Below, piece after piece: positions 17,066-59,710 of a stretch of DNA of 64,000 nt. The notes beneath the pieces were generated by a model. It saw nothing but the letters and a program-made list of their open reading frames with translations, ran no database searches and was not told the origin of the DNA. Source of the DNA: Candidatus Omnitrophota bacterium (GTDB lineage Bacteria > Omnitrophota > Omnitrophia > Omnitrophales > Aquincolibacteriaceae); contig DAOSLF010000010.1 in assembly GCA_035368605.1 (NCBI GenBank), positions 766 to 64,765 on the forward strand, given 5' to 3'. Numbering within the stretch: the stretch's first letter is position 1; every line of letters begins with the position of its first letter. Position numbers and translations under genes: made by a program.

Positions 17066-17725
17066 TCATTCCATCATCAAACCCTTGAGAATGGCTGTTT
17101 CCCTTTGAGCATCCCGATGCTTCTCCACAAAGTTTTGATATTCCGCAGATGTAAAATCAAAAACACCTTGAAACGCACAAAGCCCTGGCTCCTGGGACGA
17201 CCGGGACAAATACTCCTGATAGGAAGAGTGCTCCCATTCGCCCGGCTTGTTGACCAGACCGGCGCTCGCAGGATTCAAATGGATATAGCGTGACAAATGC
17301 AAGGCTTGTTCATTTGTTTTGACGCGAACATTTTTGAAGCGCCCCTCCCAAAGGGGTCCTTTCCGCTTATGCCTCAGATTAAAATACCGCGCATAACCAT
17401 TGAGGAGCCTTCCCATGAAAACAGATATACCGTTCGTTGCGGATTGCCTGAGAAACAAATGAATATGGGTCGGCATAAGGCAATAGGCGATAATATGAAC
17501 CAGTCGTTCTTTCTCCCGCCGCTCGGTCATCCGCGGGGTCATGTCCTTTCCAAGCCGTTTGAGCCACGAAAATTTCATGGCAGGATCCGAAACCTGGTGA
17601 AACTCCAGAAGCGATTTCATTCGGTCGAATTCGTCTTTATGGTTAAAAATGACGAATCCCGCGATACTTTTCGTATAAACATGGTAATACTCCCCCGTCG
17701 CCAACGGATCCTTGCGAACCTGCAT
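17066..17725 (-). mobile_element. REP-associated tyrosine transposase (RAYT, IS200/IS605 TnpA-like HUH enzyme)
   Basis: GEYYHVYTK N-terminal motif, HUH motif PTHIHLFL, catalytic Tyr motif YIHLNP. Flanked by inverted REP copies. Confidence 0.8.
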
Positions 17726-23800: not shown

Positions 23801-26800
23801 TCAAAGTATTCCCGAGGGCCTCTCCGCCGGCATCGTTCCCTCCCGGCATCAGCAGAGCGTCCAGGTTCCCCTGGTTGCTCACGGGTCCCAGGGATAACGC
23901 CATGACCTGGTAATGCGCTCCGCGCGTCGGCTTGAATGTGAGCTTCGCCAGACTTCCGTTAAAGACCAGCGCCTCCTCGTAGGGGCCGACCAATGACGGG
24001 AAAGCCACCCCTGAAACGGGTTTCCGGTCGCGGGCCGTCCCGATCCCGTCGGCGACATAATCAGGAAGCGCGGGAGGCAAACTCTCCAGAAGAAAAGTCA
24101 GCGCCGCGGAATTCCTGCCGGAAAGCGTGTTATACGATGTCAGGTCCGTCAAATGGACGGGCGCGACCGCCTCGGTCTTTTCCGCAGGATCATACCGTAC
24201 CATCGGCGATACCACATGCAGGCCCGGATCGATAAGAACATTATAAAAACGGCTCCGCATCAACTCCTTGCGGTCGAGTCCCCGGAGCACCTCCGTCTTC
24301 CGCTGGTCTTCGGGGTCCGAAACGATGTTCCCAAAATGCGAGAGATAATAGTGGTGAAGAAAATTAACAAATTCATTCAGGATCTGCGCCCTCCGGATCC
24401 GGCTTTCCGGCCACTCGTAATCATGTTCCCACCCCGGAGAAATGGAAAGGAGGCTCGAGGGCGCGCTCGTCCGGCTCTTGCGAAACAACTCTTCCTTCTT
24501 CGCGGCAATCCGGCTGAAAAATTCGCGTTCCTTTTCCTGCCGGAACGCTCCGCGGAAGAGGTCCTTGAACGCGGAGGCGAAGGCGGTCACGGATTCCAGA
24601 AATTCATGCCGCTCCAGCTCCTTGAGGCCGGAACTTGTCGCGATAGCCTGTGCCTTTTCCCGGACTTTAAGATGCATCTTTTCAAATTCCGCCACGCGGG
24701 CGTCCAGAACGTTCCGGTTGATGGAATAAAAACCCAAATTCCAGAACGGGCCGTCTTTGCGAATATTCCTGCCTGTAAACAAAGAGGCCATATTCTCGGG
24801 AACGGCAAATCGCATCTCCTGATTCAGGAGGGCGCGCTCGTCCCCCGAAGGAACGGTGTCATCGTCAACATCTCCTTCGATGTCGGGGTCTTCATTCCGG
24901 ACAACCTTCGCTCGCTCCGGCGTTTCGGGCACAAAACTGATATAGACAATTTTCTCGAGATGAACAAGGTCGCTGAGATGCGCGCTCGTGACCGGCATCC
25001 CATAGAGTGTCCTGAAATTACGGATCACTTCCCTCAGTTTTTCAGCCCCTCCGAATTCCCGAACCGCGCGGTCGAGATTCTTTTTCATGAATTCACCCGT
25101 CAACCCCGCCCGGAGCATGAGCATGGGGTGCAGGAGCGCGCCAACGCCGGAATCCGTTTCACGGGCAATTTTCCGAAAATAATCAAAATCCTCACGGGAC
25201 ATGCCCGCGGCAACGGCCCTGCCTCTCAAATCTTCCAGAATCTCCGGCGTGACGGGGATTCTCCGCAGGTTTTCCCCGGCCAGGAATTTCAGTGAATCGG
25301 GATGAGGCCCTTTTAGCGCCCCGGCAAGAGCATCGAAGGAGTCGTGGATTTCCAGCAAGACTTCAGGGTCCTCCCGAACAAGACCGGCCAGAACGGCTCC
25401 TGCCTTTTCTTTTCCGGTTCGATCCGGGCTATGGAGCTGTCGTATCAACTCGGAGATTTGAGAACTTCTTGCCCGATTTTTATCATCCACCGGCTCGGTT
25501 CTCCGGTTTAGAAGAAGTTCCCGATCCGGGGCCGGAGGCTCCCGTTGTTCGGAACGGACGGACAAATCTTTGACGGGCTGAAGGATCGCCCGGACGCCTT
25601 TCGGAAAATATTTTTTCGCTATATCGTCCCGGACCATCAGCAACGCGATATAACGGTCCGAATGTGCGAACTCCTGGGATGTGGCCCCGGCGAGGACCGA
25701 GTAAGCTTCGCTGAAAGGCCCCATGATGTCTTCCCGCAGGGCGAAGGTCAACCCCGTGGTAATGACCATCGCGGGTTCAAGCCGTTTCACTTCCTCCAAA
25801 AAACTCATTTCCTCCCCTTCGGAATAAGCTCCGAAAACATAGGAGATGTTCATGACCACGATCGCGTCCTTCCACTCCGCGGGGTCCACCTCCCCCGAAT
25901 CCAGGGCTTTCCCGAGATATTCCACGGTCTGGTGGCGGTTCGGCTCCCAGCCGTTACGCTTGAGATTCCCAGCCAAACGGGCGCGTTTTACGGCAACAGG
26001 TTCCACAAAAAGGACTTTCGGGGAGTTCCGGAAAAACAATCCCAGTTTTCCGTCACTCGCTCCAAAATCAACGGCCGGGAAATCCTGAACGACCGGCCGG
26101 AGCTGTTGCATCAGTGCAAGAGCAACGTGAGCCGACGCGACCGGCGTTTCGGACCGCCCCATAAAGTCGGGGTTTTCCAACGCAATAAACTGCACATCCG
26201 GATACCGGGACGTCGCGGGGCCGAGGATCGCCCGAGTCGCAGGGTGATCCCGGTAATAAACGACATCTCCGTGCCGGCGAACGATCACCTGCTTTTCCCC
26301 GGATCCGTCGATGTCCGCTTCAAAATAATCCAGGGGGACCAGATCCCCATCCCGATTCGCGGAATGATAAAAATCATGTATCACGTCCGGGAATTTCTCA
26401 CGAAAGAGGGGGAAGAGCTCCCTGATAAAATCCCCCTCCACGGATCCGATCGATTCGTTGAGCGCGGCGCGGACCGCCTTGGGGAGGCTGGACATGAGAC
26501 CTTCCAGGCTCACCATCAAACGGTCCAGACATTCTCCTGCGTTAAAGTAATAGGAAGGATTCCCGATGTAGGCGGAAAGAGACGGAAAATCCCGTTTCAG
26601 ATGTTCAGTGACGCTTTTTGAACGCGCGAACGTGTCGGGAACGGCATTGTAACCGTAGGTCACTTTAAAACGATCCGGCCTTCGGACAAAATAAACCGCC
26701 CGTTGAGCCTCCGCGACACTCAGGAACGGTTTCACGTCTTCGTCCCGAAGCCTCGCCTCGGCGCGACCTTCCAACGGTTTCAACCGCGCGGGCCGACGAG

Positions 26801-45781: not shown

Positions 45782-48700
45782 TTACGCGCTTCTCGCCGTC
45801 GCGAGGTACTCGGCCTGCATCTGTTCGACCATCTGACTCACGCCGAGACCGGCCAGGTTGAGGAAGTTCCGGAACATCTTCTGGTCGATCGTGACAACAT
45901 TGTCCTTCAACTGCTCGGCCAGAAGCGCCGCCTGCGGATTGTTCGCTCCCGCGAAAATCATGGCCTTCAGATTCAGGGAAGTGCCGCGGGCCCCGGTTTC
46001 CCGATCGGCGTCCAGGAGTTTTCTCGTCGCTTCATCCAGATCAGCGGCCGGCAGGATGGGAGGCCGGTTGGCCTGGCGGAGCCGGGCGTTGATCTTTTCA
46101 AGGAAACCAAGGTCCGCAGGATCTTCCGTCAGGACAACCGTGCGGATATTGCCAAACACATTGCGGATCACATAAACAAGACCGCGCTTGAAAGCGGTTT
46201 CGGGGTCAAGCACAAGCGCGTCGTTCGCCTGGAGCGTTTTGACCCCAAGCGACCGCCGAAGCATCCGGACGGTGAATTCGCTCTGGAATTTCTCCGGCCA
46301 GCTCGCCACCGTGACGGGCGCGGTCACCCTGGCGACCGGGGCCAGATTTTCAAGGATGATGTTTTTGATTTCATAGGAATACGCGAGAAGCGGTACGATC
46401 CCGTCCATGATCTTTTCCGTCACGGCGCGCATCGCGCGTTCGGACGCACCACTCAGGCGTTCATGATCCAGGAGAAACTCCTTATAGGTCAACACCGGGC
46501 CGGAGGCCGTGACAAGACCTCTCAATTCGCCCGCGATCTTCTGAGGCCGTGTTTCTGTCGAACGCGTTTCCGCGCGGGGGGCAGCAGAGCCGTCCAAAGG
46601 CGCCTCAGCCGCGGATTCGTTTTCCGTTTTAACGGACGGGATGACGGTAATGCCGGTCCCTTCGCGCTCGAGCTTCCAGAGACCGAGCTTCACACCCAGG
46701 GCAAGCGCGATCTCTTCCTGCGGCCGCAGCGGTCTTTCGGTGTTGTGCCCGAAAAGGTCCTTCAGGGAAATGACCGGCGGCATTCCTTGAACCGTTTTGG
46801 CCGGCGGCGGCACCAGGGCCTCCAGGATCGTCCGGATCCCGTCCTGGTTTTCTTTAATAAACCTTCCGCTAACACGGACAACGCGTTTCGTTCCGCGGAC
46901 CGTTATCCCGATCTCCGTATCTCTCGGATATTCCCTGCCGCCACGCTTGATCACGAGAGAATCCGCATAGAGCTTTTCAAAGGTCGCCGTTTCCCCGGCC
47001 GCTTCGTCTTTTTTAGCCCACTCCACGGCAGCGGCGTATTCGCCGATCGTCACGATCAGAAATGCCCGGTCGTCCTTCGAAAGCGTGAACTGTGTTTCAA
47101 AACGGTCAACAATCGCCGCAATCTCATCCTGTACCACCTCAGGGATCGCCCGTTTATTCATCGCGCCGTAGCGGCGGATAAGTTCGACATCCGGTTTCTG
47201 TTCGAGGGCAGTCACGAGGGCGGCCCGGCTCTTTTCGGCGGAGGACGGTCCTTTCGCCTTTTTCACGGAAGTCCTGGCCTCGGCGCGGACCGTCACCGGG
47301 GGTTTCAGACTTTCAAGAAAGCGGCTCGCGCGAAACAGCCCTTCAAAACCTTTGCGGCCACCCGAAACCAGTTCATGCCCGAGGAACAATTTTGCGGTCT
47401 TGCGAACGCCTTCGTCAGGATGGGAGGCGGCCACTTCCTCAAGCTCCTTGCGAACCCGGGCTTCGTCAGCCGCCGCGTTACGCAGTTCGGCCCGGGCGTG
47501 GTATTTCAGAACGCCGGCAAAAAATACGGCAAAGGACGCTGCCGGAGCCGCCGTCACCATACCCTTTGCCGCGGCCTGCGCTACTGCACGCAACTCGCTC
47601 CGCTCGCTCCACGCAGCGGGCCTTTCGCCGCTCGCTACCGGCGCGTCAGGGCGGTTTATGCCGACGGGGATCATCTGGAGCACCTGGAAACGCCATCCCG
47701 ACTGCTGAACTCCGGCAGGGTCCTTGCGCTTCACAACAGGCACGCCCACGCGCCAGCCTTCCCTGGAAAGAGAGGCTAACGTGTGTTCCCGCTCATAGAC
47801 CGTGTTCGCGGTCCAGTCACGTACTTTATAGACGGTCCCGGGAAGCAATCCCAACCGGTTGATGCTGCCCAAACCAAACCAGACCTTTCCTTCCTCTTTA
47901 TTGTAAGGCGTCTTGGCGAAATGGATCGGAATGACCACATGCCGCTTCTGTTCCGTCCCGTCCACCCTCTCGGTCACGGTGCGGGTAATGACAACGGCGG
48001 AGTCACGACTCGCATCATTGAGAAAGATGTCTCCTTTTTCAAAAAGATCTTTCATCTCCGGATCGGCCATGATCGCCTTCAGAGAGTGATACACTTCAGG
48101 ATCCCAGTCGCGCATATCTTCAAGGAATTCCGGTATCAGCCCCGCGATAAAAGCCATCACAGGACGCACGCCCTCGCTCCCGAAGCCCAGTTCCGAAACC
48201 ATTTTCCCGCGGGACAACGTAGAGATCGCCTTGAGACGCCGCTTCAGGTTTTCCGGGTCATGCCTCAAAAGATAGATCACTGTTTTTTTGAGCCAATAAC
48301 CCCGGGAGCGCTGCTGCCGGACCTGATCTTTGGGGTCCCCGGACACAAGCGCCCGGAGATCGTCGATAATGAACATTTCCTGGGATTGCTTTTGGGGACC
48401 TTCCAGTGCCATCTCCCCGGTTGGACGCAATCTCAGGATCTGAATGTCCGGTTCCGGAACGCCGATCGGAAGCGCCCCGCGGGACAGCGCCCAGAATGGA
48501 TAGGGTTTCCTGTCTTCGCCGTCACCGTAGATCTCGCCGGTGATGACGTTCGACACCTCATAGGCCATTTTCGATTCGGGGTCCGTTTGTCCGGTCAACC
48601 ACTCAAAAACCTTTTCCCCGTAGAATTGCCCCCAGGCTTTCGGCTCGCCGCCTTCCACCCCGGGATATTTCGGCTCCCCAAGGTTCAGCGCCACAATGTA

Positions 48701-51700
48701 TTTTTCCCCGTTTTCCTCGACCGCAAATCCCGCGAGGCTCTGGTTCAAAGACCCGAATTTCCGTCCCCTGGATTCCAGGTAGAAGTAAAGGTTCTGCCGG
48801 AACAGCGCGTTCCGGAAAAGTTCTTTGTAGCCTTCTCCCCGGGAGATCAAATACCCTTGCAGGATTTTCTCGGAAAGCCGGGCCACGAACAGATCCAGCA
48901 AACGAAGCGCGGCCAGATTCCCGCGCACTTTCTCCAGGGTGTTCGCCGAAGATTCAGCCTGTGCTTTCAGTGCGACCATCTCCTGATAGAGCATCGGCAA
49001 GGATTCCCTGAACGGTTCCAGATAAAAGAAGATCTTGCCAAAGATATCCCCCCGCGCCGCGTGATAAGCCACGGAACGATACCCTTCCGCGGCGTGAGTC
49101 CTCAGAAGGCGGGAACTTTCGATAAAATCCAAAACCCTGGGACCCGCAAGTTCCAGAGGCTCCGGCTTTTCCGTCCGCCAAATAAATCCGGCACGCTCAT
49201 CTTTTTCGCCTTGAGATAAAAACCTCAAAGCCTGTTCCGGAGAAAGCTGCGATTGCGCAAAGATCATCTGTTGTCTTTCTTTCTTTTGGATCACCTTTTG
49301 CCACAACTTCATATGGGCCCGGGCCTGGCTCTTTTCCATATCCACCAAGGGAGAGGAACGGAGCGCTTCCCATTCAAGGTTCATGCGTTCCGCGGGAACC
49401 TGATAACGCCCCTGAAGGTTTACGAGAGCTTCGATCATGGAGTGGGCCATCGGATAGCGTGCGTTGATTTCCACGATATTGCCGTCGGCATCCAGCGTGT
49501 TCAGGACAAATTTACGATCGCCTGTTTCGCTGTACTCCACGAGGTAACCGTTCGTAATCTTCCAATCCTTGCTATGGAGGTTTTTGACGAGCTGCTCGTA
49601 GGTCACATGTTCTTTGAAGATATCGACTTCCCGTCCGGTGGCCGTCTCAACGATCGTAAAAAGTTCGGGGCCCGCACCGCCCCAGGCCATAATCAGAACC
49701 GCTCCGTTCGGAAGCCCCTTCATCATGCTGGTCGCGGAAGCTTCCAGAACCTCGTAGGTGATCATTACGGTCGCGGAGTCTCCCTGGAAAAGGATCGGGG
49801 CGACTTCGATGTTGTAGTTTTCGATGGTCGCAAATTTGTCCTCGAGACCCAGCTCTTTGACAAGACCCTGAATCTCGAGGAATACGTCGTGTGCGTCCTG
49901 GCCGAATTCACGCCCCCCAAGGATCGCCCGGGCGGCGTGCTTTTTGTACCAGGCGAGTTTCGCGGGATCCGCCTTCAGGGAATACAGAATCTCCCGCCAT
50001 TTGTCCGGCCCCTTGTAGGAAACCTGCCGGCGCACGTTGGAAACAATCGCGGTCTTCAGAAATTCCCTTCTCAAGACCCGGATTTTTGTATCACCTGAAA
50101 TATCCTTCCACGCGTTCTCATTCACGAGCGCCACCTGGATCGCCCGGTAAAGGTCCCCGAGAACAGCGGCATCATCCACGGACTCCATCCCCAGCTCGCG
50201 GCGATAAGCTTCCATGGCTTTGTCGTACCAGGCGGGACGATTCTGACTTTGTTTCAGCCAAAGCATCAGCCGGCCTGTGAGATAAGCCTTGATCACATCG
50301 AATCGCTCCTGAAATTCTCCCAGAACCGCTTTACGGGCGGGATCGTTCAGTTTGGCGAAGAAATCCCGGTCGTCGACTTCATCCATTCCGAGTTTCCGTT
50401 TGTACGAATCGACAAGAGACCTGAAAAGCGGCGATTGCCATTGCTCAAAAAGGACCCCGTTCGTGCTACGAAGCCCGTCCCCGTTGTAGCTGTCAACAAT
50501 ATCCACATATCCGGGGGCCACTCCGCCGGCAACCGCCGGCGTATGTTCGTACAGGGCCACTCCGGTAATCATGTCGAAGATCATCCCGATCGCTTTCACC
50601 ACGTTAATCTTCCCCTTCTGAACGATGTAACGCCACAGGGAAACGGCATAACCCAAAAGCCTGGCTGAAACGGCCGCGGGCCCGTAAATCGTCGGTTCGA
50701 ACACCGAATGATTCATGTGATGATGGATCGCGTCGGGCAGAAGAGGCGTCGGAATACTGACAAAAACCTCATTGTCCACGAAGAGAATCTTCTTTTTGGC
50801 GAGACCCTTTTCCTGCAGCTTGAGGGTTAGAAGCTCCGTAATCCTTCCATAGACCGCCATTTGAAGATCGCGCCAGAGATTCGGGCCGCCATAGGGAGCG
50901 TCCGGATACACTTCGTCAAAAATCTGTACTTTCGCACCGTATTCATCGATGTAAAAGGCCTCCACGTAAAAGTTCGGCATCCCCCCGACTGATGTTTCCG
51001 TGGGGTAAACCTTGATCCGGATCTCGCGATCGGAAGCTTCCCGCGCCTGCTGAAGCCTTTTCCGGTAAAGCGTCCAATCCTTTTTTTGAGCTTCCAGTCC
51101 CGCGCGCGCGTTCGCGTCCCCCGATCCGGAGATCCGGCCGTCTATATCCGCGATGATCCCTTCCGCGCGTGAAATCCATTCTTCCGCGCCGGAGCGATAT
51201 TCACTTCCGGGTTCCATGAAAGTCTCCAGACGAAGACCGGGGTCTTCGCTGAGAACATCCCGCAAATAATCTCCCAGAGTCCTTTTGCCCTCTTTAACTT
51301 CTTCCGGAACGTCCTTGGCAAAACGCTGTCCCTTAATCTCATCATAGATCACGTTCACGGTAAACGCGTCATAGGCTTTCGCCTTGGGCCTCCCGAAGTT
51401 TTTTTGCCAGGAAGGGAAAAGATCGTGCATCAAGGCGCCAAGACCGCCGGTCACTGTCGTTGCAGCCACAAGACCCGCGATCGTTTCCCCAAACTTTTGA
51501 ATAAGCCTGTCGAGAATATCTCTTGAAAGCCCCGCTTCAAGCTGACGCGATACAACCGTATACTTCCCCAGTTCCGCGGGCTTTTTCGCCCAAGCGCGTG
51601 ATTCGGAGCGGGCAAAAACCCCGGGAGCAGATTCCGGCGCTTTTTTCCACATACGCGTCATTATCCGCACAGGACGCTCTTCCCGGACTTCGCTCCGGAC

Positions 51701-54700
51701 AAATTCGTCCCCGAGACCCGTCAGTCGATCCGCAAGCGCCCTGATATTCTCTTTCTCCTTCATCATGGCCCAAGCGCCCAGGATGGTCCGGATAAGCGTC
51801 AGGGCCGCGGCCTGCGAATCTTCATAGCCTTCTTTCAGGAGCGCCGTATAACCGGTAAAAATATCATTTGTCAGGAATTGTTCCCGTCCCTGGGCGTAGA
51901 AAGCGGCCGTCAGCAGCGCCGCGATCCGTTCGCTGACGCGTTTGTTCAGGAAGCGACCAAAAATCCCGCGGTGCCCGTGTTCAAAAGCGCGGATCCGGGT
52001 CTTTAAAAGGTGGATCGTCGCGAGCGCCGATTCGACCGGCGAGTAATTCTCTCTCTGGAATTGACGGAAATACCGGAGCGTATACTGCTGCCGGAGAGCG
52101 ATCGACGCGCCATCCGCGAAAACGAACGCAAGGGCGAGCATGGCCGAAACTTCGGAGGAGATATTCTTCGCGGCAAATTGTTCATAGACATTCCGGATCC
52201 GGTTTTCTGCGGCACGCGGGTCGCGATCGCGTTCGAGAACAAGCGCCGCCGCCAAAACAGCCTCGATGAGCAACTGGTCGTTCCTCCCGGTCTTGACGGC
52301 ATCCAGTTTTTCGGACCACGGCGCCATCTGTTCGTTCAGCCACGCGGAGGACTGATAGAGAGGGCTTTCTGCAGGTTCCGACTTCATCCACGTTTTGATT
52401 AGCCCGGAAACCGTCAACGCGGCAAATCCGTCCCCTTCCAGGGACTTTCGCGCCATCGCAAGGACGTCGCCCGCGCGGTTCTCGGTCTCAAGCATCGACC
52501 GTATCCTCAGAACATCAGGCGTTTCACGGACCTCGCTGCGCGCATCCTGTCCGGTGGCTCTGAACCATCGGCTCAGCCTATCCATATCCCGATCCCGCAT
52601 CGTCTGACCTTTCCGGTCCTTACGCGGGCGATAGGTTTGATCGAGCACCGTGAACAACATCCCTTCCGGCGACTCGATCTCGATCGTTATTTTTGAACCC
52701 CCCACATCCTTTAAAAAAATCCGGACAGGCTCCTCACCCTTCCCGCGCGTCACCGTCAAAGGCGTTCCGGCATAAAGATCAAAACCATCGCCCTCCCTTG
52801 AGATCATTTTCCCGTCGACGGAAATATTCGTATTTTGCGACTGCAAAAGAACATAGGCGCCGCCCTCGCAGGGCGAATCCATCACCAACCGGAATTCTCC
52901 GGCGCCAAAAACCAAGGTCTCGTCCAGTCCCAGCTCCTGTTCTGCTTTTCGGGTTTCGGATCGCATTGAGAACCTGAACCCTTGCCGGGTGAGAAAATCG
53001 CTCAGCGCCTGCGCATGCCGAGCGGACAACAGGTAAGCCGCCTCACCGCGTCCGTTCACGATCACAGCCTTTGGTGTTTCGATCACGCCGGAAACGAGCC
53101 GATCGCGGATCAGGTCCTCAATCAGGGGATTTTCAGGATGGGAAGATAGCAGAATAATCGGCGTTTGAACCTTTCCGGTGGCAGTTGAAAGAGCTTTCCT
53201 CGTCCAGGTCTTCCACTCTTCACGTTTGCTGGCCACATCGAAATTGACCAACGCGAGATCGAACGGGCCCTTATCCAGATTTTTCCATAATTCTTCACGG
53301 TTATAGCTGTCGATCCGGGCGGAAACAACCTTGGCTTGGGGGGCAAGTTCTTTCACCAGTTGCCTAAAACCGCTGATCCCCGGCTCACCATCTGCCACCA
53401 AAACATTCTTTAAAGCCGGAAAAGTCTTCCCGGGAATTTCGGTGGATAAAACCGCAGCCACTTCCGGACGCGCCTCGAAATGAACCCGGTGTTCTCTCAT
53501 CCGGACGTCCCACCGCCTGTTCTCCTTATCAAGGCGAACCGAGACCCCGAGATTCCGGTCACCGGCCTCAAGAATCCTCACGATTTCCTCCATGAGCGGG
53601 ATATATTTCAAATCTTCTGCCGTGAAATAAACAACCTGCCCCTCAACCCGATCCCGAATATCTCCCAGAATCAGCAATTCCAAAACGCGTTTGATGGTCG
53701 AAGCATCCGTTGCTTCTGCCAGGGCGCGGGTCCAGGCCTGGTAGCGTTCCCGGTAATGTTTTTCCCGGATCTCGCGAGGCGCCAAATAGCTCGTCCCGAG
53801 AATATGTCGAAGCGCCAAAAGGACCTGGCTGTCTTGCGCTTCCGCGGGGTCCAGTCTGCCGATCGCTTCACGATAAAGGATGTGCCCGGGAAGTCGCTGG
53901 TAGCGATACCGAAGCGGGAGTATCACGAGGCGATGGATCATTGCGGACACGCTCACGAAGAAGATCATGGCGGAAGCGAGGATCAGACAATCCCTCAATT
54001 CAGACCGCCGAACCGCAGAAACCGTTTCCTCCTGTTTTGAAATCTCCAGCCATTCCAGATCTTCGATCCCCCGGACCCCGGACTGGCGTGAAAGGCTGTC
54101 CACCATCCACAATCCCTGTCTCGCGGGATTATCGTCGATCATGATCGTATAGGCGATCCGGGCTTTCGGCTTGAAAGTCACGAATGTCCCCAGAAGGGCT
54201 TCGCGCGTGACCCCCTGCTTTTCAAGAAATGCAGCGATCGAGCCTTGAGCCTCGCCGAAATTCTTCCGGGAAAAAGACCACAAAACCTCTCCCGAAGGCA
54301 ACCCCGGACTTATTTCCAAAGAGGGCCGGGTATCGAACGCGGGAAGCGCGGCGTTCGGAATCTTCGTGACCTTGGGTTCGGATTTGCGGACCGGGACCGT
54401 TCTTTTTGAAACAAAAAAACCACTGATCGCAAGACCAGCCGCGACCACAAGGGCTGTTGTCAGAAAAGCACCGGCAACAAGACCCACTGCGGCAAACGTC
54501 AACGCAAGGGATGCTTTTTCCCTGACGGACCGGAGAACGGACCGCCGGCCGGCAAAGTCACGCCCTTCCGATCGCGCGCCCATCTGCTGATTCAGAACGT
54601 CTTCGAGCATACCGGCATCGTTCCAGCGGATCCTGGCCCCGTCGAACAGGATGTTCCTCGCGTCATGCGGATCGGCCGTGACCGTGACGCCGGCAGGAAG

Positions 54701-57700
54701 CAACGTCGCGAGCTTCTCGAAGAGATCGTCCCGGTTCGCGACGACCGTGCCTTTACCGTCGATCACGAGAACAAGCTTGTGGCCGGAGATCGTCTGCACC
54801 ATCACCCGCCGGATCCCGGAACGGACGTTTTCCGTCACAAGCTTCCCGGATGAAAATCCGCTTTTGAGGAATTCGCCGAGAGACACGCCGGGTTCTTTCG
54901 AAAGATTTTCATCCTTCATCCCAACCCGAAATTCGGAACGCAGGTTGGAGTTTGCGGCATCCCGAGCCCCGAAACGGGAATCGAACGGATCACGGGACAT
55001 AAGCGGCAGGCTTCCGGCATAAACGTCTCCCGCACCGAAATCCACGGTCAAAAGATCCCCTTCACGCAACGCTCTTCCCCCGAACATCACGCTTCCGTCC
55101 CGGAGGACGTTAAGACCCTGCACGCTGACTACGGTGGGGATTTTGTCGTAGTTAGCTACCACCGCGGCATGCGAGGTCAACCCCCCTTGGGAAGTTAAAA
55201 GTATGAGCCTTTTTCCGAAGGCCCTGAGTATGCGATTGGCATTGATAAGGTCCGGAGAATCTTCGGGCGTCGGGAAAGCACTGACAAGGATCACGGCTTC
55301 CACCTTTTCCTGCCGGGCCATGCGTTCCACCAAATCTCCCCGAAGCACTTCGGAGGGTTTCAGCGCAACAATCCCCCGCAAGGCCCCCTCGTTCCCGTAG
55401 GCGACGTTGCCGTGTCCTTCCGGAGTCCGGGAAATTTTTTCATGGTCCAAAAGCGGAAAGTTTTCCGTGTTCCCGACCCTTTGATCATAGACCGTCTGGA
55501 GGAACCACGGCTTTCTGCTTTCAACGGTGAACTCCACCATTTGGGGAACACCAAAATATGCGGCCAAAAGACTGGTGCCGGCTTTTAAACTCTCATAAAC
55601 GCGGGAATCCATGGTCTCGATCGGCCGTGTCGGGACACGCCCCTGCATGTGGTTCATGCCCTGTGAAAAAGGAACCCATTCCCCGCCAAAAACCGGATCA
55701 CCCGAATAAGGGTCGTGGGATGTGGCAATCCCCGCGCCGGAATGTTCATCCCGATCCCCAAAAACATAGGCTTGCACGATCACGGGCGTTGCCCATGCGT
55801 CTGAAATGTTTTTTTCTTTCCGGTAGCGGCTTGCCTTGGAATTTCCCCAGGATTCAAAAATTTTCTCGATCAGAAAATAAAGCTGTTTGTGTACATCCTG
55901 ATGCAGGGCCTCAAACTCCTCTTTCACGCCATAATGGTCCATGATCCCATACGCTTCCCGCACCATTTCAGAAAGATCCGACTCCCGGAGATCTTCCCAT
56001 TTCAGGACTTTGCCATCGCCAAGGAATCGGTTCGCCAAAGCCTCGAATTCGTCATGCGGAACGCCCAAACTCGTAGCCATTGATTCCACAAAACCGAGAA
56101 AGGCCCTGTAACCGGATTTAGCGCCTCTCGTTTCCAGGACATACTCCAGAATCTCCGGAGTGAATCCCACCGCCACGGCCGTTTCAAAAATCCCCGGCAT
56201 GATAAAGACAGCCCCGGAACGGACCGCGAGAAAAAGAGGCTCGCCATCTTCCCTGAGCAGAGGGGTCGGGGCCATGCCATAGCGGACAGGGTGCCCCTTC
56301 TTTCCAGACCATTCTTCTTCGAGTCTTCGGAGATGTTTTTTGATGGCTGTCTGGAACTGCTCCGGAAATTGCTTGTAAAAACGATACCGCCCGACATAGG
56401 AGGGGATCACAAAAGCGCTCGGAACCGGAAGTCCCAGGGAATTCATCCTCATCAGGTAGGTCCCTTTGCCGCCATAGGTTTTTCTTTCGTGTTGCCGGTA
56501 GTCGTAATGAGAATCCCGGTAATCATCAATGTGGGCGATCTCCCCGAACGGATCCTGTTCTTTTTGCCTGATAAAATTCCGGTGCGCCTCGGGGTTAACC
56601 GGTTTATCGGGATTCTGGTTCACCTGGACCTGCGTTCTGCTTTTGAGTTGTTCGAGAAGATCGATGGCAGCCACCGAGGCGAATTTTTCCTTGCGGATCA
56701 GGGCAATGGCACGTTCGTGCCTTTCATGGTCTTCGCCGTAAAGGAATTTTCCGGCCAGATGATATTGGGAAATCCACCGGGAGAATTCCCTCTGGATCCC
56801 TTTTTGCATGACATTGATCACATCCAGAAGTTGGCTATAACTCAGCTCCGAATCATTCAACAAATCGGACCACTGAGCCGCGTACCTTGTGATGAATCCG
56901 CTGTCAAACAGCTCGTCGGTCAGTTCCGCCATCAGCGTCAGCGCATCCTGAAAATCGGCGTCAGCCTCCCCCCATTCTTTCAGAAAGGTTCCGAGCGACA
57001 AACTCAACATTTGCCCCAAGGAACGGTCGATCACATAGAGCTTGTGCATAAGCAGGGGGTTATTCACGCTTTCCAGGATTTCTGTGACTGTCCGCCGCGC
57101 GGCAATGATTTTCCTTGTCCTTTCAAAAGAGGATTGATCATAAGCCTCCACAACAAGCTGTAGCGCTTTCTCCAGAGAGGGAAGCTCCTTGACGGTTTGG
57201 GTCTGAAGCCAGCGTTCAAAAAGGTCAGGCCTGGAAGTCCCTTCAAAAAGTGCGACCAGGGCCTGCTCCAATTGTCTGATTTGAGAATAAATTTCGTTCT
57301 TGTTCCGTCCGCCGTCGGTCATGGCAACCAGCTCGTCCCGAAGCTCCCGGTCCCGTTCCTCCAGAAAGAGCCGTTCGCGCTGGAGCCCGCCAGTGTCGCC
57401 CGTGTTCAGAAATTCCAGATAGGCCTGAACTTTGGAGAGTACCCCGTAAGAGAAAGAAGCCCCGTGAAGAGTCTGGCGGATTTCCGCCGCAAACTTGGTA
57501 CGCAATAATCGCTCGTCGAGATCCTCCGCAATTCCCCACAGAACGCTCCTGAGATCGAAGAAGGTATCGGCCGCCCCGTAGGGTAATGAGAGTACAAGCT
57601 CTTTAACAGGCCGTCTCAGGGATTTCGGGGTTTTAGCAAAAATCTGCGCGGCAAGGTTCCCGGACTGATCAACAAGATCGTCAGGATACTGTTCATAATC

Positions 57701-59710
57701 ACGCGAGTGGTTGAGGCGGAGCGTTTTTTTCTTTTCTCTCAAAAGAAGACTCAGCTGAAAGATCATATCCAGGTGGGCGCTCAGATCCTCCTGTTTCAGA
57801 ATCCACCGGATCACCGCAAACGCATCGCCCCAGGTTCTGATCTCCCGAAAATCCGGCGTATCTCCCCTCGCCTCGGAGCGTCGATGGGAAGAATCGGCAT
57901 CATCGGGACCGCTCCTTGTTTTCGAGTCCTGGAGAAATGCCGCGGGCGGCGATGCCTTGAGCCGGTCGACCCGATCGCCAACGGCATTCACGGCGGTTGT
58001 CACTTCTTTTGATCCGGAGCGAAAAGAAGCCGCGGCGGCGATAAAATTGCGGCGGACGGCGGCGACACCTTCCGGGGAAACCTGCCGGACGATCCCGGCA
58101 ACACGCTCGCCGGCCGCGGCAAAATCACGGTGCCAGGTCCGGGGAGACGTTTCCTGCCAAAACCGTATTTCGCTTCGGACTACGGGAGCCATGTGGGACT
58201 TCCCTGTCAATTCCTGTCCGAGCAGTGCGGCAAGATAGTTCTTCCGGGAATCTGCCGGAACCTCACCGATATGGGGCGTGATCCCGATGTAGGCATTGCC
58301 CGAACGCGTGATTCTCTCTTTAAGTCCGTCGGTGTGAAAACCGCCGGTAATAAGCACGGCCCTGGTCCGCTTGCGTTCTTTCATTCGCGCGAGAGACTTT
58401 TCCATCATGAAATCCTCGCGGCGAATCGCGCCGGCGTAGAATTCCAGCGCTGTTTGATAGAGGGTTTGCAAGGCGGGCGATACATCTGCCGCCAAATGTT
58501 CCGGAACGATTTTCCTCGAAACCACCTGCTGGTATTCTTCCCGGGAAAGCTCCAGATGAAAAAGTTTTTTGAGCAACAGATATTCCCGCAGCAACGCCAC
58601 GTGCCCGCGTTCGCTTTCGGTCCCGGTGGTCGCGACAACGATTTGCTTCGAAAGTTCCCGGATCTCTTGCTGCAGCGCCTCACCCTGAAGCTCGGACATG
58701 AGGACCAACTGCTGGATATGAAGGCGAAAGTTCGGATAAACGGCAAAAGAAAAATCGTTCGGCAAAGCGTCCATCATGCGTTCAAAGACAAACCGGGTTT
58801 CATAGACCGGAAGGGATCCGGTCTTCGCTGAGGCGAAAACCCGCTCCACCTCGCCCGCCACGGAGGATGAAAGGCCGGTTTCCGCAAAGAATTTCTTTTT
58901 CTCGATTTCGCTTTTGGCGAGGTCGATCCCGGCGCCCGCCTTTTTCAAACGGAAATAGCGGACCAGGGTCGGCCAGGCGACCTGTGCCGACGCGTCCAGA
59001 AGATCCAGATCCAGCGAGGAGAACGCCTTCTTCTTCAACGTTTCCAGCCAATCGGTGAGCGGACTTTGCCCTGTCTCGTAGGAAACATAACGGCTGAGGA
59101 ATTCCCGAAGGCCCTTATTCAAAACCGATGCGGCCTGGCCCTGCCACCGGAGATAAGCCTTGTCGAGAAAAGCGTTCCCGATCTCACGGCCTTTAAAAAC
59201 GGCCTTGAAAGCTTCGCGGTCCGCACGATACGCCGCAGCGTCTTCAACCCCCCAACCTTCTGCCCCTCGGGGCGCATCCATCAAAAAGACCTCCGCGCCG
59301 GTAAGTTCGCCGGCCTCCATCAACTTGCGATTTGCCTCGTGCTGCAATTTGGCGTCGGCGGGAAAAAAACGGAACAGCTTCGGTTCGAGCTTGTATCCGG
59401 CCCCTTCCATGAGAACCAGGTCAACGCCATAGTCCCTGGAAAGATACTGCAAAATACCCCGGATATTCTTTTGGGCGTCATAATTGGCGTGAGCTTCCTG
59501 AATATGGATCAGGACCGGTGATTGCGGAGCGGCCGGAATGATCTCATGCACTCGACCGAATGCGTCGGGGATTTTGAACGAGGAAACAAAAGAAGGCGCT
59601 TCCACACCCCGGGCATGGGCGAGCGGGGAAGGAGTCAGAGTGTTGGTCGCGAAGAAAGTGACAACAACGAAACCTGCCAGAAGTCTGTTAAGCTTCTTCA
59701 GAGAATACAT
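45782..59710 (-). CDS. giant 4642-aa multidomain protein. Order: N-terminal TM, shared ~450-aa His-motif domain, PEP-synthase/PPDK-type ATP-grasp + swivel-His dikinase module, internal TM block, REC-like + PilZ-like pair, GT35-like alpha-glucan phosphorylase region, ~1100-aa C-terminal region of unknown function.
   Basis: Single uninterrupted ORF with non-repetitive sequence. Domain motifs are listed in the findings. Confidence 0.8.
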   Translation of the reverse strand: MYSLKKLNRLLAGFVVVTFFATNTLTPSPLAHARGVEAPSFVSSFKIPDAFGRVHEIIPAAPQSPVLIHIQEAHANYDAQKNIRGILQYLSRDYGVDLVLMEGAGYKLEPKLFRFFPADAKLQHEANRKLMEAGELTGAEVFLMDAPRGAEGWGVEDAAAYRADREAFKAVFKGREIGNAFLDKAYLRWQGQAASVLNKGLREFLSRYVSYETGQSPLTDWLETLKKKAFSSLDLDLLDASAQVAWPTLVRYFRLKKAGAGIDLAKSEIEKKKFFAETGLSSSVAGEVERVFASAKTGSLPVYETRFVFERMMDALPNDFSFAVYPNFRLHIQQLVLMSELQGEALQQEIRELSKQIVVATTGTESERGHVALLREYLLLKKLFHLELSREEYQQVVSRKIVPEHLAADVSPALQTLYQTALEFYAGAIRREDFMMEKSLARMKERKRTRAVLITGGFHTDGLKERITRSGNAYIGITPHIGEVPADSRKNYLAALLGQELTGKSHMAPVVRSEIRFWQETSPRTWHRDFAAAGERVAGIVRQVSPEGVAAVRRNFIAAAASFRSGSKEVTTAVNAVGDRVDRLKASPPAAFLQDSKTRSGPDDADSSHRRSEARGDTPDFREIRTWGDAFAVIRWILKQEDLSAHLDMIFQLSLLLREKKKTLRLNHSRDYEQYPDDLVDQSGNLAAQIFAKTPKSLRRPVKELVLSLPYGAADTFFDLRSVLWGIAEDLDERLLRTKFAAEIRQTLHGASFSYGVLSKVQAYLEFLNTGDTGGLQRERLFLEERDRELRDELVAMTDGGRNKNEIYSQIRQLEQALVALFEGTSRPDLFERWLQTQTVKELPSLEKALQLVVEAYDQSSFERTRKIIAARRTVTEILESVNNPLLMHKLYVIDRSLGQMLSLSLGTFLKEWGEADADFQDALTLMAELTDELFDSGFITRYAAQWSDLLNDSELSYSQLLDVINVMQKGIQREFSRWISQYHLAGKFLYGEDHERHERAIALIRKEKFASVAAIDLLEQLKSRTQVQVNQNPDKPVNPEAHRNFIRQKEQDPFGEIAHIDDYRDSHYDYRQHERKTYGGKGTYLMRMNSLGLPVPSAFVIPSYVGRYRFYKQFPEQFQTAIKKHLRRLEEEWSGKKGHPVRYGMAPTPLLREDGEPLFLAVRSGAVFIMPGIFETAVAVGFTPEILEYVLETRGAKSGYRAFLGFVESMATSLGVPHDEFEALANRFLGDGKVLKWEDLRESDLSEMVREAYGIMDHYGVKEEFEALHQDVHKQLYFLIEKIFESWGNSKASRYRKEKNISDAWATPVIVQAYVFGDRDEHSGAGIATSHDPYSGDPVFGGEWVPFSQGMNHMQGRVPTRPIETMDSRVYESLKAGTSLLAAYFGVPQMVEFTVESRKPWFLQTVYDQRVGNTENFPLLDHEKISRTPEGHGNVAYGNEGALRGIVALKPSEVLRGDLVERMARQEKVEAVILVSAFPTPEDSPDLINANRILRAFGKRLILLTSQGGLTSHAAVVANYDKIPTVVSVQGLNVLRDGSVMFGGRALREGDLLTVDFGAGDVYAGSLPLMSRDPFDSRFGARDAANSNLRSEFRVGMKDENLSKEPGVSLGEFLKSGFSSGKLVTENVRSGIRRVMVQTISGHKLVLVIDGKGTVVANRDDLFEKLATLLPAGVTVTADPHDARNILFDGARIRWNDAGMLEDVLNQQMGARSEGRDFAGRRSVLRSVREKASLALTFAAVGLVAGAFLTTALVVAAGLAISGFFVSKRTVPVRKSEPKVTKIPNAALPAFDTRPSLEISPGLPSGEVLWSFSRKNFGEAQGSIAAFLEKQGVTREALLGTFVTFKPKARIAYTIMIDDNPARQGLWMVDSLSRQSGVRGIEDLEWLEISKQEETVSAVRRSELRDCLILASAMIFFVSVSAMIHRLVILPLRYRYQRLPGHILYREAIGRLDPAEAQDSQVLLALRHILGTSYLAPREIREKHYRERYQAWTRALAEATDASTIKRVLELLILGDIRDRVEGQVVYFTAEDLKYIPLMEEIVRILEAGDRNLGVSVRLDKENRRWDVRMREHRVHFEARPEVAAVLSTEIPGKTFPALKNVLVADGEPGISGFRQLVKELAPQAKVVSARIDSYNREELWKNLDKGPFDLALVNFDVASKREEWKTWTRKALSTATGKVQTPIILLSSHPENPLIEDLIRDRLVSGVIETPKAVIVNGRGEAAYLLSARHAQALSDFLTRQGFRFSMRSETRKAEQELGLDETLVFGAGEFRLVMDSPCEGGAYVLLQSQNTNISVDGKMISREGDGFDLYAGTPLTVTRGKGEEPVRIFLKDVGGSKITIEIESPEGMLFTVLDQTYRPRKDRKGQTMRDRDMDRLSRWFRATGQDARSEVRETPDVLRIRSMLETENRAGDVLAMARKSLEGDGFAALTVSGLIKTWMKSEPAESPLYQSSAWLNEQMAPWSEKLDAVKTGRNDQLLIEAVLAAALVLERDRDPRAAENRIRNVYEQFAAKNISSEVSAMLALAFVFADGASIALRQQYTLRYFRQFQRENYSPVESALATIHLLKTRIRAFEHGHRGIFGRFLNKRVSERIAALLTAAFYAQGREQFLTNDIFTGYTALLKEGYEDSQAAALTLIRTILGAWAMMKEKENIRALADRLTGLGDEFVRSEVREERPVRIMTRMWKKAPESAPGVFARSESRAWAKKPAELGKYTVVSRQLEAGLSRDILDRLIQKFGETIAGLVAATTVTGGLGALMHDLFPSWQKNFGRPKAKAYDAFTVNVIYDEIKGQRFAKDVPEEVKEGKRTLGDYLRDVLSEDPGLRLETFMEPGSEYRSGAEEWISRAEGIIADIDGRISGSGDANARAGLEAQKKDWTLYRKRLQQAREASDREIRIKVYPTETSVGGMPNFYVEAFYIDEYGAKVQIFDEVYPDAPYGGPNLWRDLQMAVYGRITELLTLKLQEKGLAKKKILFVDNEVFVSIPTPLLPDAIHHHMNHSVFEPTIYGPAAVSARLLGYAVSLWRYIVQKGKINVVKAIGMIFDMITGVALYEHTPAVAGGVAPGYVDIVDSYNGDGLRSTNGVLFEQWQSPLFRSLVDSYKRKLGMDEVDDRDFFAKLNDPARKAVLGEFQERFDVIKAYLTGRLMLWLKQSQNRPAWYDKAMEAYRRELGMESVDDAAVLGDLYRAIQVALVNENAWKDISGDTKIRVLRREFLKTAIVSNVRRQVSYKGPDKWREILYSLKADPAKLAWYKKHAARAILGGREFGQDAHDVFLEIQGLVKELGLEDKFATIENYNIEVAPILFQGDSATVMITYEVLEASATSMMKGLPNGAVLIMAWGGAGPELFTIVETATGREVDIFKEHVTYEQLVKNLHSKDWKITNGYLVEYSETGDRKFVLNTLDADGNIVEINARYPMAHSMIEALVNLQGRYQVPAERMNLEWEALRSSPLVDMEKSQARAHMKLWQKVIQKKERQQMIFAQSQLSPEQALRFLSQGEKDERAGFIWRTEKPEPLELAGPRVLDFIESSRLLRTHAAEGYRSVAYHAARGDIFGKIFFYLEPFRESLPMLYQEMVALKAQAESSANTLEKVRGNLAALRLLDLFVARLSEKILQGYLISRGEGYKELFRNALFRQNLYFYLESRGRKFGSLNQSLAGFAVEENGEKYIVALNLGEPKYPGVEGGEPKAWGQFYGEKVFEWLTGQTDPESKMAYEVSNVITGEIYGDGEDRKPYPFWALSRGALPIGVPEPDIQILRLRPTGEMALEGPQKQSQEMFIIDDLRALVSGDPKDQVRQQRSRGYWLKKTVIYLLRHDPENLKRRLKAISTLSRGKMVSELGFGSEGVRPVMAFIAGLIPEFLEDMRDWDPEVYHSLKAIMADPEMKDLFEKGDIFLNDASRDSAVVITRTVTERVDGTEQKRHVVIPIHFAKTPYNKEEGKVWFGLGSINRLGLLPGTVYKVRDWTANTVYEREHTLASLSREGWRVGVPVVKRKDPAGVQQSGWRFQVLQMIPVGINRPDAPVASGERPAAWSERSELRAVAQAAAKGMVTAAPAASFAVFFAGVLKYHARAELRNAAADEARVRKELEEVAASHPDEGVRKTAKLFLGHELVSGGRKGFEGLFRASRFLESLKPPVTVRAEARTSVKKAKGPSSAEKSRAALVTALEQKPDVELIRRYGAMNKRAIPEVVQDEIAAIVDRFETQFTLSKDDRAFLIVTIGEYAAAVEWAKKDEAAGETATFEKLYADSLVIKRGGREYPRDTEIGITVRGTKRVVRVSGRFIKENQDGIRTILEALVPPPAKTVQGMPPVISLKDLFGHNTERPLRPQEEIALALGVKLGLWKLEREGTGITVIPSVKTENESAAEAPLDGSAAPRAETRSTETRPQKIAGELRGLVTASGPVLTYKEFLLDHERLSGASERAMRAVTEKIMDGIVPLLAYSYEIKNIILENLAPVARVTAPVTVASWPEKFQSEFTVRMLRRSLGVKTLQANDALVLDPETAFKRGLVYVIRNVFGNIRTVVLTEDPADLGFLEKINARLRQANRPPILPAADLDEATRKLLDADRETGARGTSLNLKAMIFAGANNPQAALLAEQLKDNVVTIDQKMFRNFLNLAGLGVSQMVEQMQAEYLATARSA
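49200..51615 (-). other. GT35-like alpha-glucan phosphorylase region inside the 4642-aa protein
   Basis: Four GT35-type motifs in order: TGGLGALMHD (vs SGGLGVLAGDH), HHHMNHSVFE (vs HLNEGHAAF), EHTPAVAGG (vs THTPVPAGH), STNGVLFEQW (vs TNGVHxxTW). Confidence 0.5.
52675..53413 (-). other. REC-like (pseudo-receiver?) domain followed by PilZ-like c-di-GMP-binding domain inside the 4642-aa protein
   Basis: VLVADGEP ... FDLALVNFDV ... PIILLSSH (receiver-like). Then MRSETRK (RxxxR) and, 24 aa later, MDSPCEGGAYVLL (PilZ DxSxxG-like box). Confidence 0.4.
55000..56490 (-). other. PEP synthase/PPDK/rifampin-phosphotransferase-type dikinase module (ATP-grasp nucleotide-binding domain + phosphohistidine swivel domain) inside the 4642-aa protein
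   Basis: YGGKGTYLMRMNSLGLPVPSAFVI, LAVRSGAVFIMPGIFETAV, GIATSHDPYSGDPVFGGEWVPFSQGMNHMQGRVP, then LILLTSQGGLTSHAAVVANYDKIPTVV (TSH catalytic His). Confidence 0.75.

Follow-up and report, generated by a model that had tools for sequence, protein, structure and literature searches.

A PPDK-type dikinase module lacking the PEP/pyruvate domain in a recurrent cassette of a giant Omnitrophota protein

Swivel-histidine dikinases and Omnitrophota giants

Pyruvate phosphate dikinase (PPDK; EC 2.7.9.1; C. symbiosum 1KBL/1DIK) combines an ATP-grasp domain that includes a helical subdomain, a swivel domain with the motif GG(L/M)TSHAAVVA, and a PEP/pyruvate TIM barrel. RPH (PMC4844700), HpeHI (PMC12167813), and GWD (PMC13553574) provide precedents for exchanged acceptor domains and for different orders of the domains. 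RPH and the two-component small-molecule dikinases share one principle, which pairs an ATP-grasp domain and a swivel His with an acceptor domain specific to each family. VadK (Rv1127c) is a PPDK derivative without a TIM barrel that autophosphorylates on its swivel His (PMC13400623). Among the multi-enzyme giants of Omnitrophota (Archaeovorins, "multi-enzyme metabolic clusters"), the giant-protein literature lists PPDK_N as one of the 20 most frequent domains and describes clusters of kinases and phosphotransferases.

Two giant ORFs in the window (the whole 64-kb stretch of DNA that was analyzed) match these Omnitrophota giants at the level of the phylum via their N-terminal cap, which is present at 79 GTDB loci, of which almost all are from Omnitrophota. 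At 3.6 and 4.6 kaa, the two proteins, here called G1 and G2, are well under the 10-kaa and 30-kaa thresholds of the giant-protein studies. Their features are as follows.

45782..59710, minus strand: giant ORF G2, 4642 aa, containing the dikinase cassette (ORF list and translation; continuous orthologous ORFs in the Omnitrophota loci L012, L014, and L020)
54926..57880, minus strand: dikinase cassette, G2 aa 611-1595, RSEAR to RSEFR, ~980 aa (whole unit recurs in L020, L012, and L014)
57866..57880, minus strand: RSEAR border motif, G2 aa 611-615 (motif scan and orthologous loci)
56495..57865, minus strand: N-part of the cassette, G2 aa 616-1072, orphan all-alpha, candidate acceptor-binding domain (orthologues, dN/dS, AF2)
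55466..56494, minus strand: PPDK-type ATP-grasp nucleotide-binding domain, G2 aa 1073-1415 (Pfam, PDB, and NCBIfam matches; orthologue alignment)
55001..55411, minus strand: swivel phospho-histidine domain, G2 aa 1434-1570, with catalytic His1514 at nt 55169-55171 (PF00391, PDB alignment, orthologues, signature)
54926..54940, minus strand: RSEFR border motif, G2 aa 1591-1595 (motif scan and orthologous loci)
17877..28682, minus strand: giant ORF G1, 3601 aa (ORF list and translation; only the N-terminal cap in common with G2)
20841..21695, minus strand: ATP-grasp domain of G1, PEPS/RPH/HpeI clade, aa 2330-2614, with GGKA at aa 2333-2336 (PF01326, PDB, NCBIfam)
22317..22859, minus strand: putative "swivel-His-like" segment of G1, aa 1942-2122, with TSH at nt 22629-22637 (tripeptide only; no Pfam, PDB, HMM, signature, or homologue support)

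The dikinase module of G2 and its cassette

An earlier note on this DNA had read an ATP-grasp domain followed by a swivel-His domain at nt 55000-56490 of G2. This reading is correct and maps exactly to aa 1073-1570, where aa 1079-1338 match PF01326 (PPDK_N; 46.2 bits, cut-off 27) and aa 1504-1558 match PF00391 (PEP-utilizers; 31.4 bits in the whole protein and 39 bits for the isolated segment, cut-off 23.1). In a phmmer search of G2 against the PDB, the PPDKs 2x0s and 1kbl were matched in two stretches, the nucleotide-binding and the His domain (E ~1e-38 to 2e-38), and the module has ~30% identity to PPDK over ~90% of its length. The ATP-grasp part, with GGKG at aa 1080-1083, aligns over residues 16-341 of the PDB PPDKs and belongs to the PPDK clade (TIGR01828, 193 bits, versus PEP_synth, 12.8 bits). 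The His domain matches the T/SxxGGxxxH swivel signature: its TSH (aa 1512-1514) lies within TSQGGLTSH (aa 1506-1514), which in the PDB alignment falls on GGMTSHAAVVA of PPDK, with His1514 at the position of His455. Because G2 carries another, irrelevant TSH at aa 1330, the tripeptide by itself is not diagnostic.

The module had also been called a complete PEP-utilising dikinase. The ATP-grasp and His domains are indeed there, with the Lys and His retained, but the PEP/pyruvate domain is missing. TIGR01828, the PPDK model (193.5 bits, 5e-57), spans just positions 12-340 and the His domain, and G2 remains far under its whole-protein cut-off (843 bits). G2 has no Pfam match to PF02896 (PEP/pyruvate TIM barrel). 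With filters switched off, a home-built HMM for the C-terminal domain of PPDK matched none of the window's frames, and no PF02896-like sequence was found in L012, L014, and L020, the orthologous loci. The cassette itself stops ~80 aa past the His, at RSEFR. G2 therefore holds an incomplete dikinase, with ATP-grasp and phospho-His domains and without a PEP/pyruvate domain. The same combination, likewise derived from PPDK, is found in VadK and in short actinobacterial "PEP/pyruvate-binding domain" proteins (NF004531). Unlike the G2 module, which has its own N-domain and lies within a cassette of a 4642-aa ORF, those proteins are free-standing, ~410-530 aa long, and align to just ~53-55% of the module (P0080, P0084-P0088); NF004531 gives G2 170.5 bits (5.5e-50), under its cut-off of 456.

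G2 retains the equivalents of PPDK Lys22, Arg92, the Gly-rich loop, Glu323, Gln335, and Thr453-Ser-His455 (Lys1082, Arg1164, Glu1393, and Gln1405 in the ATP-grasp domain), as do its orthologues from L020, L014, L012, and L002. Conservation of the catalytic His and of the ATP-grasp Lys and Glu, which the earlier note had proposed to check, thus holds in the orthologues, the His being present in all four that cover the His domain. Orthologues that are 40-80% identical show no change at the Lys, at Arg92, at the Mg ligands, in the Gly loop, or anywhere in the TxxGGxTSHAAVVA motif. The module is under purifying selection, with dN/dS values against orthologues of 0.11-0.23. On the other side of the comparison with PPDK are three residues, each at least 97% conserved among 75 canonical PPDKs, whose equivalents are replaced in the G2 module (Arg135 by Ala, Asp321 by Met or Leu, Arg337 by Val or Gln), and the Arg of VVAR in the His domain, which is Asn in G2. 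These derived substitutions are themselves conserved in the orthologues. Mutagenesis of the C. symbiosum PPDK has reportedly tied some of these four positions to the ATP step.

The module makes up the C-terminal two-thirds of a cassette that runs from an orphan all-alpha N-domain through the ATP-grasp domain to the His domain. The whole cassette is found at differing positions within related Omnitrophota giants, at identities to that of G2 for which two figures per locus are given (81 and 79% in L020, 79 and 81% in L012, 48 and 55% in L014). It begins at an RSExR site in every orthologue and also ends at one in L014 and L020; in L012 the end lies beyond the locus edge, so its end border is not covered. 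What is shuffled is the whole cassette, and it is shuffled among orthologous giants of different genomes. In G2, the motif R[SAP]E.R occurs 13 times, versus 0.57 expected. We rejected RSExR as a DNA-level recombination signal because the codons at the motif vary.

The N-part (~460 aa) always precedes the ATP-grasp domain in the orthologues and is conserved (dN/dS 0.11-0.22). Profile and Pfam searches gave no Pfam or PDB match for it, and a homologue search among proteins found none. An AF2 model made without an alignment has 19 helices at pLDDT 50 and is usable only as "all-alpha"; Foldseek of this pLDDT 50 model against the PDB returned nothing below E = 0.47. In GWD1, too, a large all-alpha "central" domain adjoins the His and ATP domains (PMC13553574), and the phosphate goes to an acceptor other than pyruvate. 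GWD has its domains in the order central, His, ATP, the G2 cassette in the order N-part, ATP, His. Unlike GWD1, the cassette has no CBM45 modules, and its N-part has neither a sequence nor a fold match to any solved structure. The His domain comes last in RPH, as it does in the G2 cassette.

Two further observations concern G2 as a whole. It also holds a divergent alpha-glucan-phosphorylase-like (GT35-like) cassette (profile against the PDB, 4bqe at 1.8e-4). By crude hydropathy, its N-terminus is signal-like and the first strong hydrophobic segment comes only at ~aa 1744; on that measure, the dikinase cassette could be extracytoplasmic, in surroundings that lack ATP.

The ATP-grasp domain of G1

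The ATP-grasp domain previously placed in G1 at nt ~20800-21698 was confirmed (PF01326, 90.1 bits; nt 20841-21695), as was the presence of the GGKG/GGKA motif in both giants. The G1 domain contains GGKA and AVRS, the equivalents of Lys22 and Arg117, whose roles are known from the RPH ATP-grasp domain (PMC4844700). Its best PDB match is HpeI (9GOJ; E = 8.6e-8), and its NCBIfam matches are to PEP synthase (PEP_synth, 56 bits) and RPH models (1e-11), with no PPDK match. It is thus of the clade of the RPH/HpeHI/CreHI/PpsAB dikinases, with HpeI as the nearest solved relative, whereas the ATP-grasp domain of G2 is of the PPDK clade and not of the RPH clade. In contrast to the RPH/HpeHI systems, neither a swivel domain nor one of the RIF-binding type is recognisable in G1.

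For the swivel-His-like domain that had been proposed in G1 at nt 22560-22745, we found the TSH and nothing further of the domain. This TSH is the single occurrence in G1 (aa 2016-2018), so both giants do carry the tripeptide, but in G1 it stands without T/SxxGGxxxH, which is absent throughout the protein, and without domain support. The segment has no match in Pfam, PF00391 included, even at E<=10, and no PEP-utilizer protein is among its PDB matches at E<=10. A home-built His-domain HMM gives it 2.2 bits, the level of unrelated G1 and G2 stretches. The HAA(I/V) helix start is missing (PMC12167813), and the segment lies ~200-300 aa from the ATP-grasp domain, versus ~20 aa in GWD (PMC13553574). 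AF2 without an alignment yields pLDDT 33 and an unreadable fold. No homologue of the region turned up in searches of 1.84 billion representative proteins, of GTDB genomes, and of JGI metagenomes, and conservation of its His therefore cannot be shown. A word-indexed search with the G1 region matched only RPH/PEPS ATP-grasp domains. Two candidate relatives were rejected: P0093, the sole match of aa 1900-2330 in an exhaustive phmmer search of the 1.84e9 representatives, is a repetitive junk protein, and L003, from the metagenome scan, fits the search pattern only by chance and in antisense.

According to the earlier note, the two giants are paralogues, each with its own copy of one PEP-utilising dikinase module, whose order domain shuffling has permuted. 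Consistent with this are the PF01326 domains with GGK[GA] in both proteins, the location of the lone G1 TSH 314 aa upstream of the ATP-grasp domain within one RSExR-bounded unit, a weak collinear likeness of the G1 segment to the swivel domain in four short blocks (hhalign P = 0.035 over 40 columns), and the best local match of the His HMM across all of G1 (aa 1972-1992), which lies shortly before the TSH. Yet the two ATP-grasp domains, being of separate clades and without a significant match to each other (BLASTP E = 0.14), do not appear from their sequences to be copies of one module. Paralogy, moreover, is seen in the N-terminal cap, ~500 aa with 31% identity, and does not extend to the C-terminal domains and caps, which do not match (hhalign P = 0.32); because the giants share only this cap, a single module permuted between them is unsupported. 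With the G1 segment at background score, lacking the swivel signature, the helix start, and any homologue, we consider the proposal very improbable. A permuted order in G1 is not shown, because the upstream "His domain" cannot be verified: of a GWD-like layout, the C-terminal PPDK_N-type ATP-binding domain is present, and the upstream swivel His domain was not found. Even if real, the order would not be unusual, as had been stated, since His-then-ATP is normal in glucan water dikinase (PMC13553574).

Possible function of the cassette

Pyruvate/PEP interconversion has been stated for Omnitrophota giants (West-Roberts et al.), and in L049, a distant member of the family, an ATP-grasp domain of the PpsA type is accompanied by a His domain and a weak match to PEP-utilizers_C. 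The G2 module might accordingly be a working PPDK or PEP synthase whose PEP/pyruvate domain is supplied elsewhere. However, PF02896-like sequence is lacking from the cassette, the window, and the orthologous loci alike, the cassette border directly follows the His domain, the TIGR01828 score is 193 against 843, and nearly invariant PPDK residues are replaced, which leaves this explanation with little probability. The same replacements, including that of the His-domain Arg, would also fit a catalytically dead pseudo-enzyme kept for binding or scaffolding, as would a possibly extracytoplasmic location and the many enzyme-like domains of unclear role in Omnitrophota giants. Against a dead enzyme stand the invariance of the catalytic and metal-binding positions across orthologues and the dN/dS of ~0.1-0.2; Asp321 is missing, too, from the VadK relative P0080, and autophosphorylation is known for VadK itself. 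We regard loss of catalysis as rather unlikely.

We lean, by a small measure, toward a joint explanation, in which the G2 core is a PPDK-derived dikinase that lost its TIM barrel, was fused to the N-part within an RSExR cassette, and serves an acceptor other than pyruvate, and in which G1 carries an independent ATP-grasp domain. In place of the ancestral PEP/pyruvate barrel, the core would be permanently joined to the conserved ~460-aa all-alpha domain. ATP would bind in the ATP-grasp cleft, and His1514 would then be phosphorylated; the His domain would swing to a second site, most likely the N-part of its own cassette, and pass the phosphate to the acceptor. Candidate acceptors are a protein, as in VadK, or a glycan, the latter because G2 also holds the glucan-phosphorylase-like cassette. 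G1, with its HpeI/RPH-like ATP-grasp domain and no demonstrable swivel, would have to rely on a His carrier supplied in trans, or else it has a degenerate one. Against this explanation count the N-part, which shows no recognisable fold or ligand site, the replaced PPDK residues, and a possible extracytoplasmic site lacking ATP.

A broader and more speculative proposal, which we hold to be doubtful, is that the giants are secreted modular polyproteins, in which swappable enzyme cassettes lie between a conserved N-terminal (ChaN/Tiki-like) and a conserved C-terminal cap and are released by cleavage at RSExR. The dikinase cassette would then be a new architectural class (acceptor domain, ATP-grasp, His) that phosphorylates a target other than pyruvate, either glucan or protein, possibly within a host or prey cell or on its surface.

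Earlier work has already reported PPDK_N domains in giants of Omnitrophota. New here are the architecture and the borders of the cassette; neither RSExR borders nor the dikinase truncation is described in the Omnitrophota giant-protein papers. The cassette adds a fourth domain arrangement (N-domain, ATP-grasp, His) to the swivel-His dikinase superfamily and offers biochemistry a defined, expressible unit of ~980 aa. The RSExR borders mark specific candidate sites for cutting giants and for delimiting their domains, of the kind that the authors of the giant-gene study describe as missing for structural and functional dissection. The finding also corrects the assumption that the "PPDK domains" of Omnitrophota giants interconvert pyruvate and PEP: given the missing pyruvate/PEP domain, at least the G2 lineage must do something else.

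A truncated PPDK-derived dikinase in a giant protein

The giant genes G1 and G2 have ordinary chromosomal genes as neighbors in the window: transketolase, MqnA-type menaquinone synthesis, SOD and ABC transporter genes, an Mrp/complex-I-like cluster, a GGDEF gene and, adjoining G1, an IS200-type transposase.

Features of the two giants (window positions)
17066-17725, minus: IS200/Y1-type transposase ORF directly downstream of G1 (PF01797, 4e-9)
17877-28682, minus: G1 giant ORF, 3601 aa
19581-20084, minus: Bac_transf (polyprenyl-phosphate sugar phosphotransferase), G1 aa 2867-3034 (2e-31)
26766-28682, minus: N-terminal cap, G1 aa 1-639; the caps are the sole region common to G1 and G2
45782-59710, minus: G2 giant ORF, 4642 aa
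47603-51610, minus: G2 aa 2701-4036, most widely conserved cassette of G2 orthologues, containing a GT35-like region
54926-57880, minus: dikinase cassette, G2 aa 611-1595
G2 aa 1079-1338, minus: PPDK_N (Pfam, 46 bits, cut-off 27)
G2 aa 1504-1558, minus: PEP-utilizers (Pfam, 31 bits; isolated segment, 39 bits; cut-off 23.1)
58178-59710, minus: N-terminal cap, G2 aa 1-511

The segments named in the earlier note correspond exactly to G2 aa 1073-1570 and G1 aa 1979-2041 and 2328-2627. We found that the G2 region (nt 55000-56490) is a truncated PPDK-derived dikinase in a mobile cassette of a modular Omnitrophota giant protein. Besides the Pfam matches above cut-offs, a PDB search returned the pyruvate phosphate dikinases 2x0s and 1kbl as top matches (E ~2e-38). 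Each aligns twice, once over the nucleotide-binding domain (PPDK residues ~16-341) and once over the His domain, where GGMTSHAAVVA of PPDK is paired with GGLTSHAAVVA of G2. The NCBIfam models TIGR01828 (PPDK, 5e-57) and NF004531 (short PPDK, 5.5e-50) also match, both with scores far under their trusted cut-offs. The ATP-grasp domain followed by a His domain is therefore real. Contrary to the earlier claim, the module is not complete: PEP-utilizers_C is absent from the Pfam results, and an unfiltered search with an HMM made from the C-terminal domains of 75 PPDKs matched nothing in any frame of the window. The database relatives number 88. Apart from two closer ones, they are conventional PPDKs or short two-domain proteins of actinobacteria, at ~30% identity; those two are both fragments, P0001 from Omnitrophica (40%) and P0002 from L001, a 96%-identical, low-coverage contig in which the G2 orthologue is split into many ORFs.

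Also in this relative (L001:1-322, contig ERZ2648042 NODE_2529), a further large gene, running off the locus and with a product of 2680 aa, is found upstream of an Exo_endo_phos gene matching window 62775-63536, in the region beyond window position 64000. A third giant is probably located just outside the window.

G1 and the order of dikinase domains

The second copy proposed for G1 held up for its ATP-grasp domain (PF01326, 90 bits) but could not be verified for its swivel-His domain, so the observation is confirmed in part. The ATP-grasp domain is matched by PEP synthase and RPH models and by no PPDK model, and its closest solved relative is 9GOJ. This structure is HpeI, which supplies the ATP-grasp part of the two-component dikinase HpeHI as a separate protein. 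The G1 domain aligns with the G2 domain only at E = 0.14 (BLASTP) and is an orphan of another clade, unrelated to that of G2. The swivel-like stretch holds the only TSH of G1 (aa 2016-2018) and four short swivel-like blocks in the correct order (hhalign P = 0.035). It has no Pfam match, PF00391 included, and no dikinase among its PDB matches, both at E<=10; it scores no higher than unrelated stretches with our His-domain HMM and lacks the published signature T/SxxGGxxxH (PMC12167813), whose one match in G2 falls exactly at the His domain. Searches of GTDB genomes, JGI metagenomes and 1.84 billion representative proteins returned no homologue of G1 aa 1900-2330. That this stretch is a true, degenerate swivel domain is doubtful. 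Given the different clades and a G1-G2 homology confined to the first ~500 residues (31% identity), the idea of order-permuted copies shuffled between paralogues is not supported as proposed. Beyond Bac_transf, at G1 aa ~3080-3300 (about 18780-19440), PP2C-like motifs (MDGHGG...ATDG) occur that Pfam does not call.

Nor would a His-then-ATP order be unusual in itself, because the superfamily already has three documented orders: PPDK and PEPS run ATP, His, acceptor; RPH runs ATP, acceptor, His (PMC4844700); and GWD runs acceptor, His, ATP (PMC13553574). HpeHI, for its part, splits its parts over two polypeptides. The G2 cassette (N-domain, ATP, His) differs from these as a further arrangement. 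A distant family member (L049:11418-21371), in which RSExR is nearly absent, has a PpsA-type ATP-grasp domain, a bona fide swivel His domain ~300 aa downstream and, last, a region that PEP-utilizers_C matches weakly (E = 2e-4); it is possibly a complete PEP-synthase-like unit in normal order.

Catalytic residues and a candidate reaction

PPDK_N has already been listed as one of the most frequent domains in Omnitrophota giants and interpreted as pyruvate/PEP interconversion (10.1101/2023.11.21.568195), a reaction that is unlikely for the G2 lineage. The likeliest reading, at somewhat better than even odds, is an active ATP-dependent dikinase that would load His1514 with phosphate and hand it to a non-pyruvate acceptor held by the stretch directly before the ATP-grasp domain (N-part, up to aa 1072). 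VadK, which also descends from PPDK and lacks the TIM barrel, is still able to autophosphorylate its swivel His (PMC13400623). The main alternative, a pseudo-enzyme, is rather improbable. Alignment with 75 full-length PPDKs revealed four changes at positions at least 97% conserved (Arg135, Asp321 and Arg337 are Ala, Met and Val in G2, and Asn stands in place of the VVAR Arg), alongside retained Lys22 (K1082), Arg92 (R1164), MPG loop, Glu323 (E1393) and Gln335 (Q1405), and Thr453 and His455 (H1514) of the swivel. Because orthologues share both kept and changed states, the catalytic His and ATP-grasp Lys/Glu included, and all sub-domains have dN/dS values of 0.11-0.23 when compared with L020 and L012, we consider this a selected, derived state and not decay.

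Glucan as the acceptor is no more than a lead, prompted by the divergent GT35 alpha-glucan-phosphorylase-like region of G2. In this region the PLP-lysine motif EASATSMMK is still present, and every PDB hit of its profile is an alpha-1,4-glucan phosphorylase (E = 1.8e-4 to 1.5e-3). The N-part (~460 aa) has no relatives in Pfam or PDB; it is predicted, at low confidence, to be all-helical, and a fold search with that model gave no informative match. The G2 N-terminus (aa 1-25, window 59635-59710) looks like a signal sequence (…LTPSPLAHA/RG). By crude hydropathy, strongly hydrophobic segments first occur past the dikinase cassette, at aa ~1744-1762 and ~1905-1933. If this terminus is exported, the ATP-dependent domain could lie outside the cytoplasm.

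Caps, borders and cassette exchange

A GTDB scan with the N-terminal cap yielded 79 loci, nearly all from Omnitrophota, with a few from Elusimicrobiota and one from a Planctomycetia MAG. Cap members (loci L004-L082) share the invariant motifs HIQ(E/D)AH, EG, R and GGxH; PF04187 (ChaN/Tiki superfamily) matches 9 of 27 members weakly (E = 5e-4 at best) and is the only family to recur among them. The cap may serve the giants as a hydrolase or protease head.

Every cassette border carries the pentapeptide RSExR (R[SAP]E.R), with 13 occurrences in G2 and 5 in G1 versus ~0.55 expected; RSE.R density is 1.19 per 1000 aa in the family's giant ORFs versus 0.09 in other frames and ORFs.

RSExR sites (minus strand)
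G2, nt = 59710-3*(aa-1): aa 512, 611, 1591, 1713, 1902, 2250, 2391, 2672, 2701, 4037, 4073, 4142, 4379
G1, nt = 28682-3*(aa-1): aa 640, 1043, 2674, 3304, 3341

Codons at these sites vary, so the signal lies at the peptide level. The cleavage points of these giants are stated to be unknown in the giant-gene preprint; RSExR may be a polyprotein processing site.

In three other giants (L012, L014 and L020), the ~460-aa sequence of G2 aa 611-1072 always precedes the ATP-grasp and His domains. The cassette starts exactly at RSExR in all four (RSEAR in G2) and ends at a second one (RSEFR in G2) wherever the end is covered, L012 being truncated by the locus end. Its position varies (aa 611 in G2, 1402 in L014, 2050 in L020 and 3106 in L012), and cassettes of L012 and L020 are ~80% identical to that of G2 versus only ~50% for the caps. 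In L004, with a cap 85% identical to that of G2, the slot of window 54926-57880 is occupied by another sequence, 1477 aa long and containing an S8 peptidase (L004:6297-10727). Cassette order and content vary among otherwise related giants, and the identity mismatch and the L004 replacement point to the exchange of whole cassettes by recombination.
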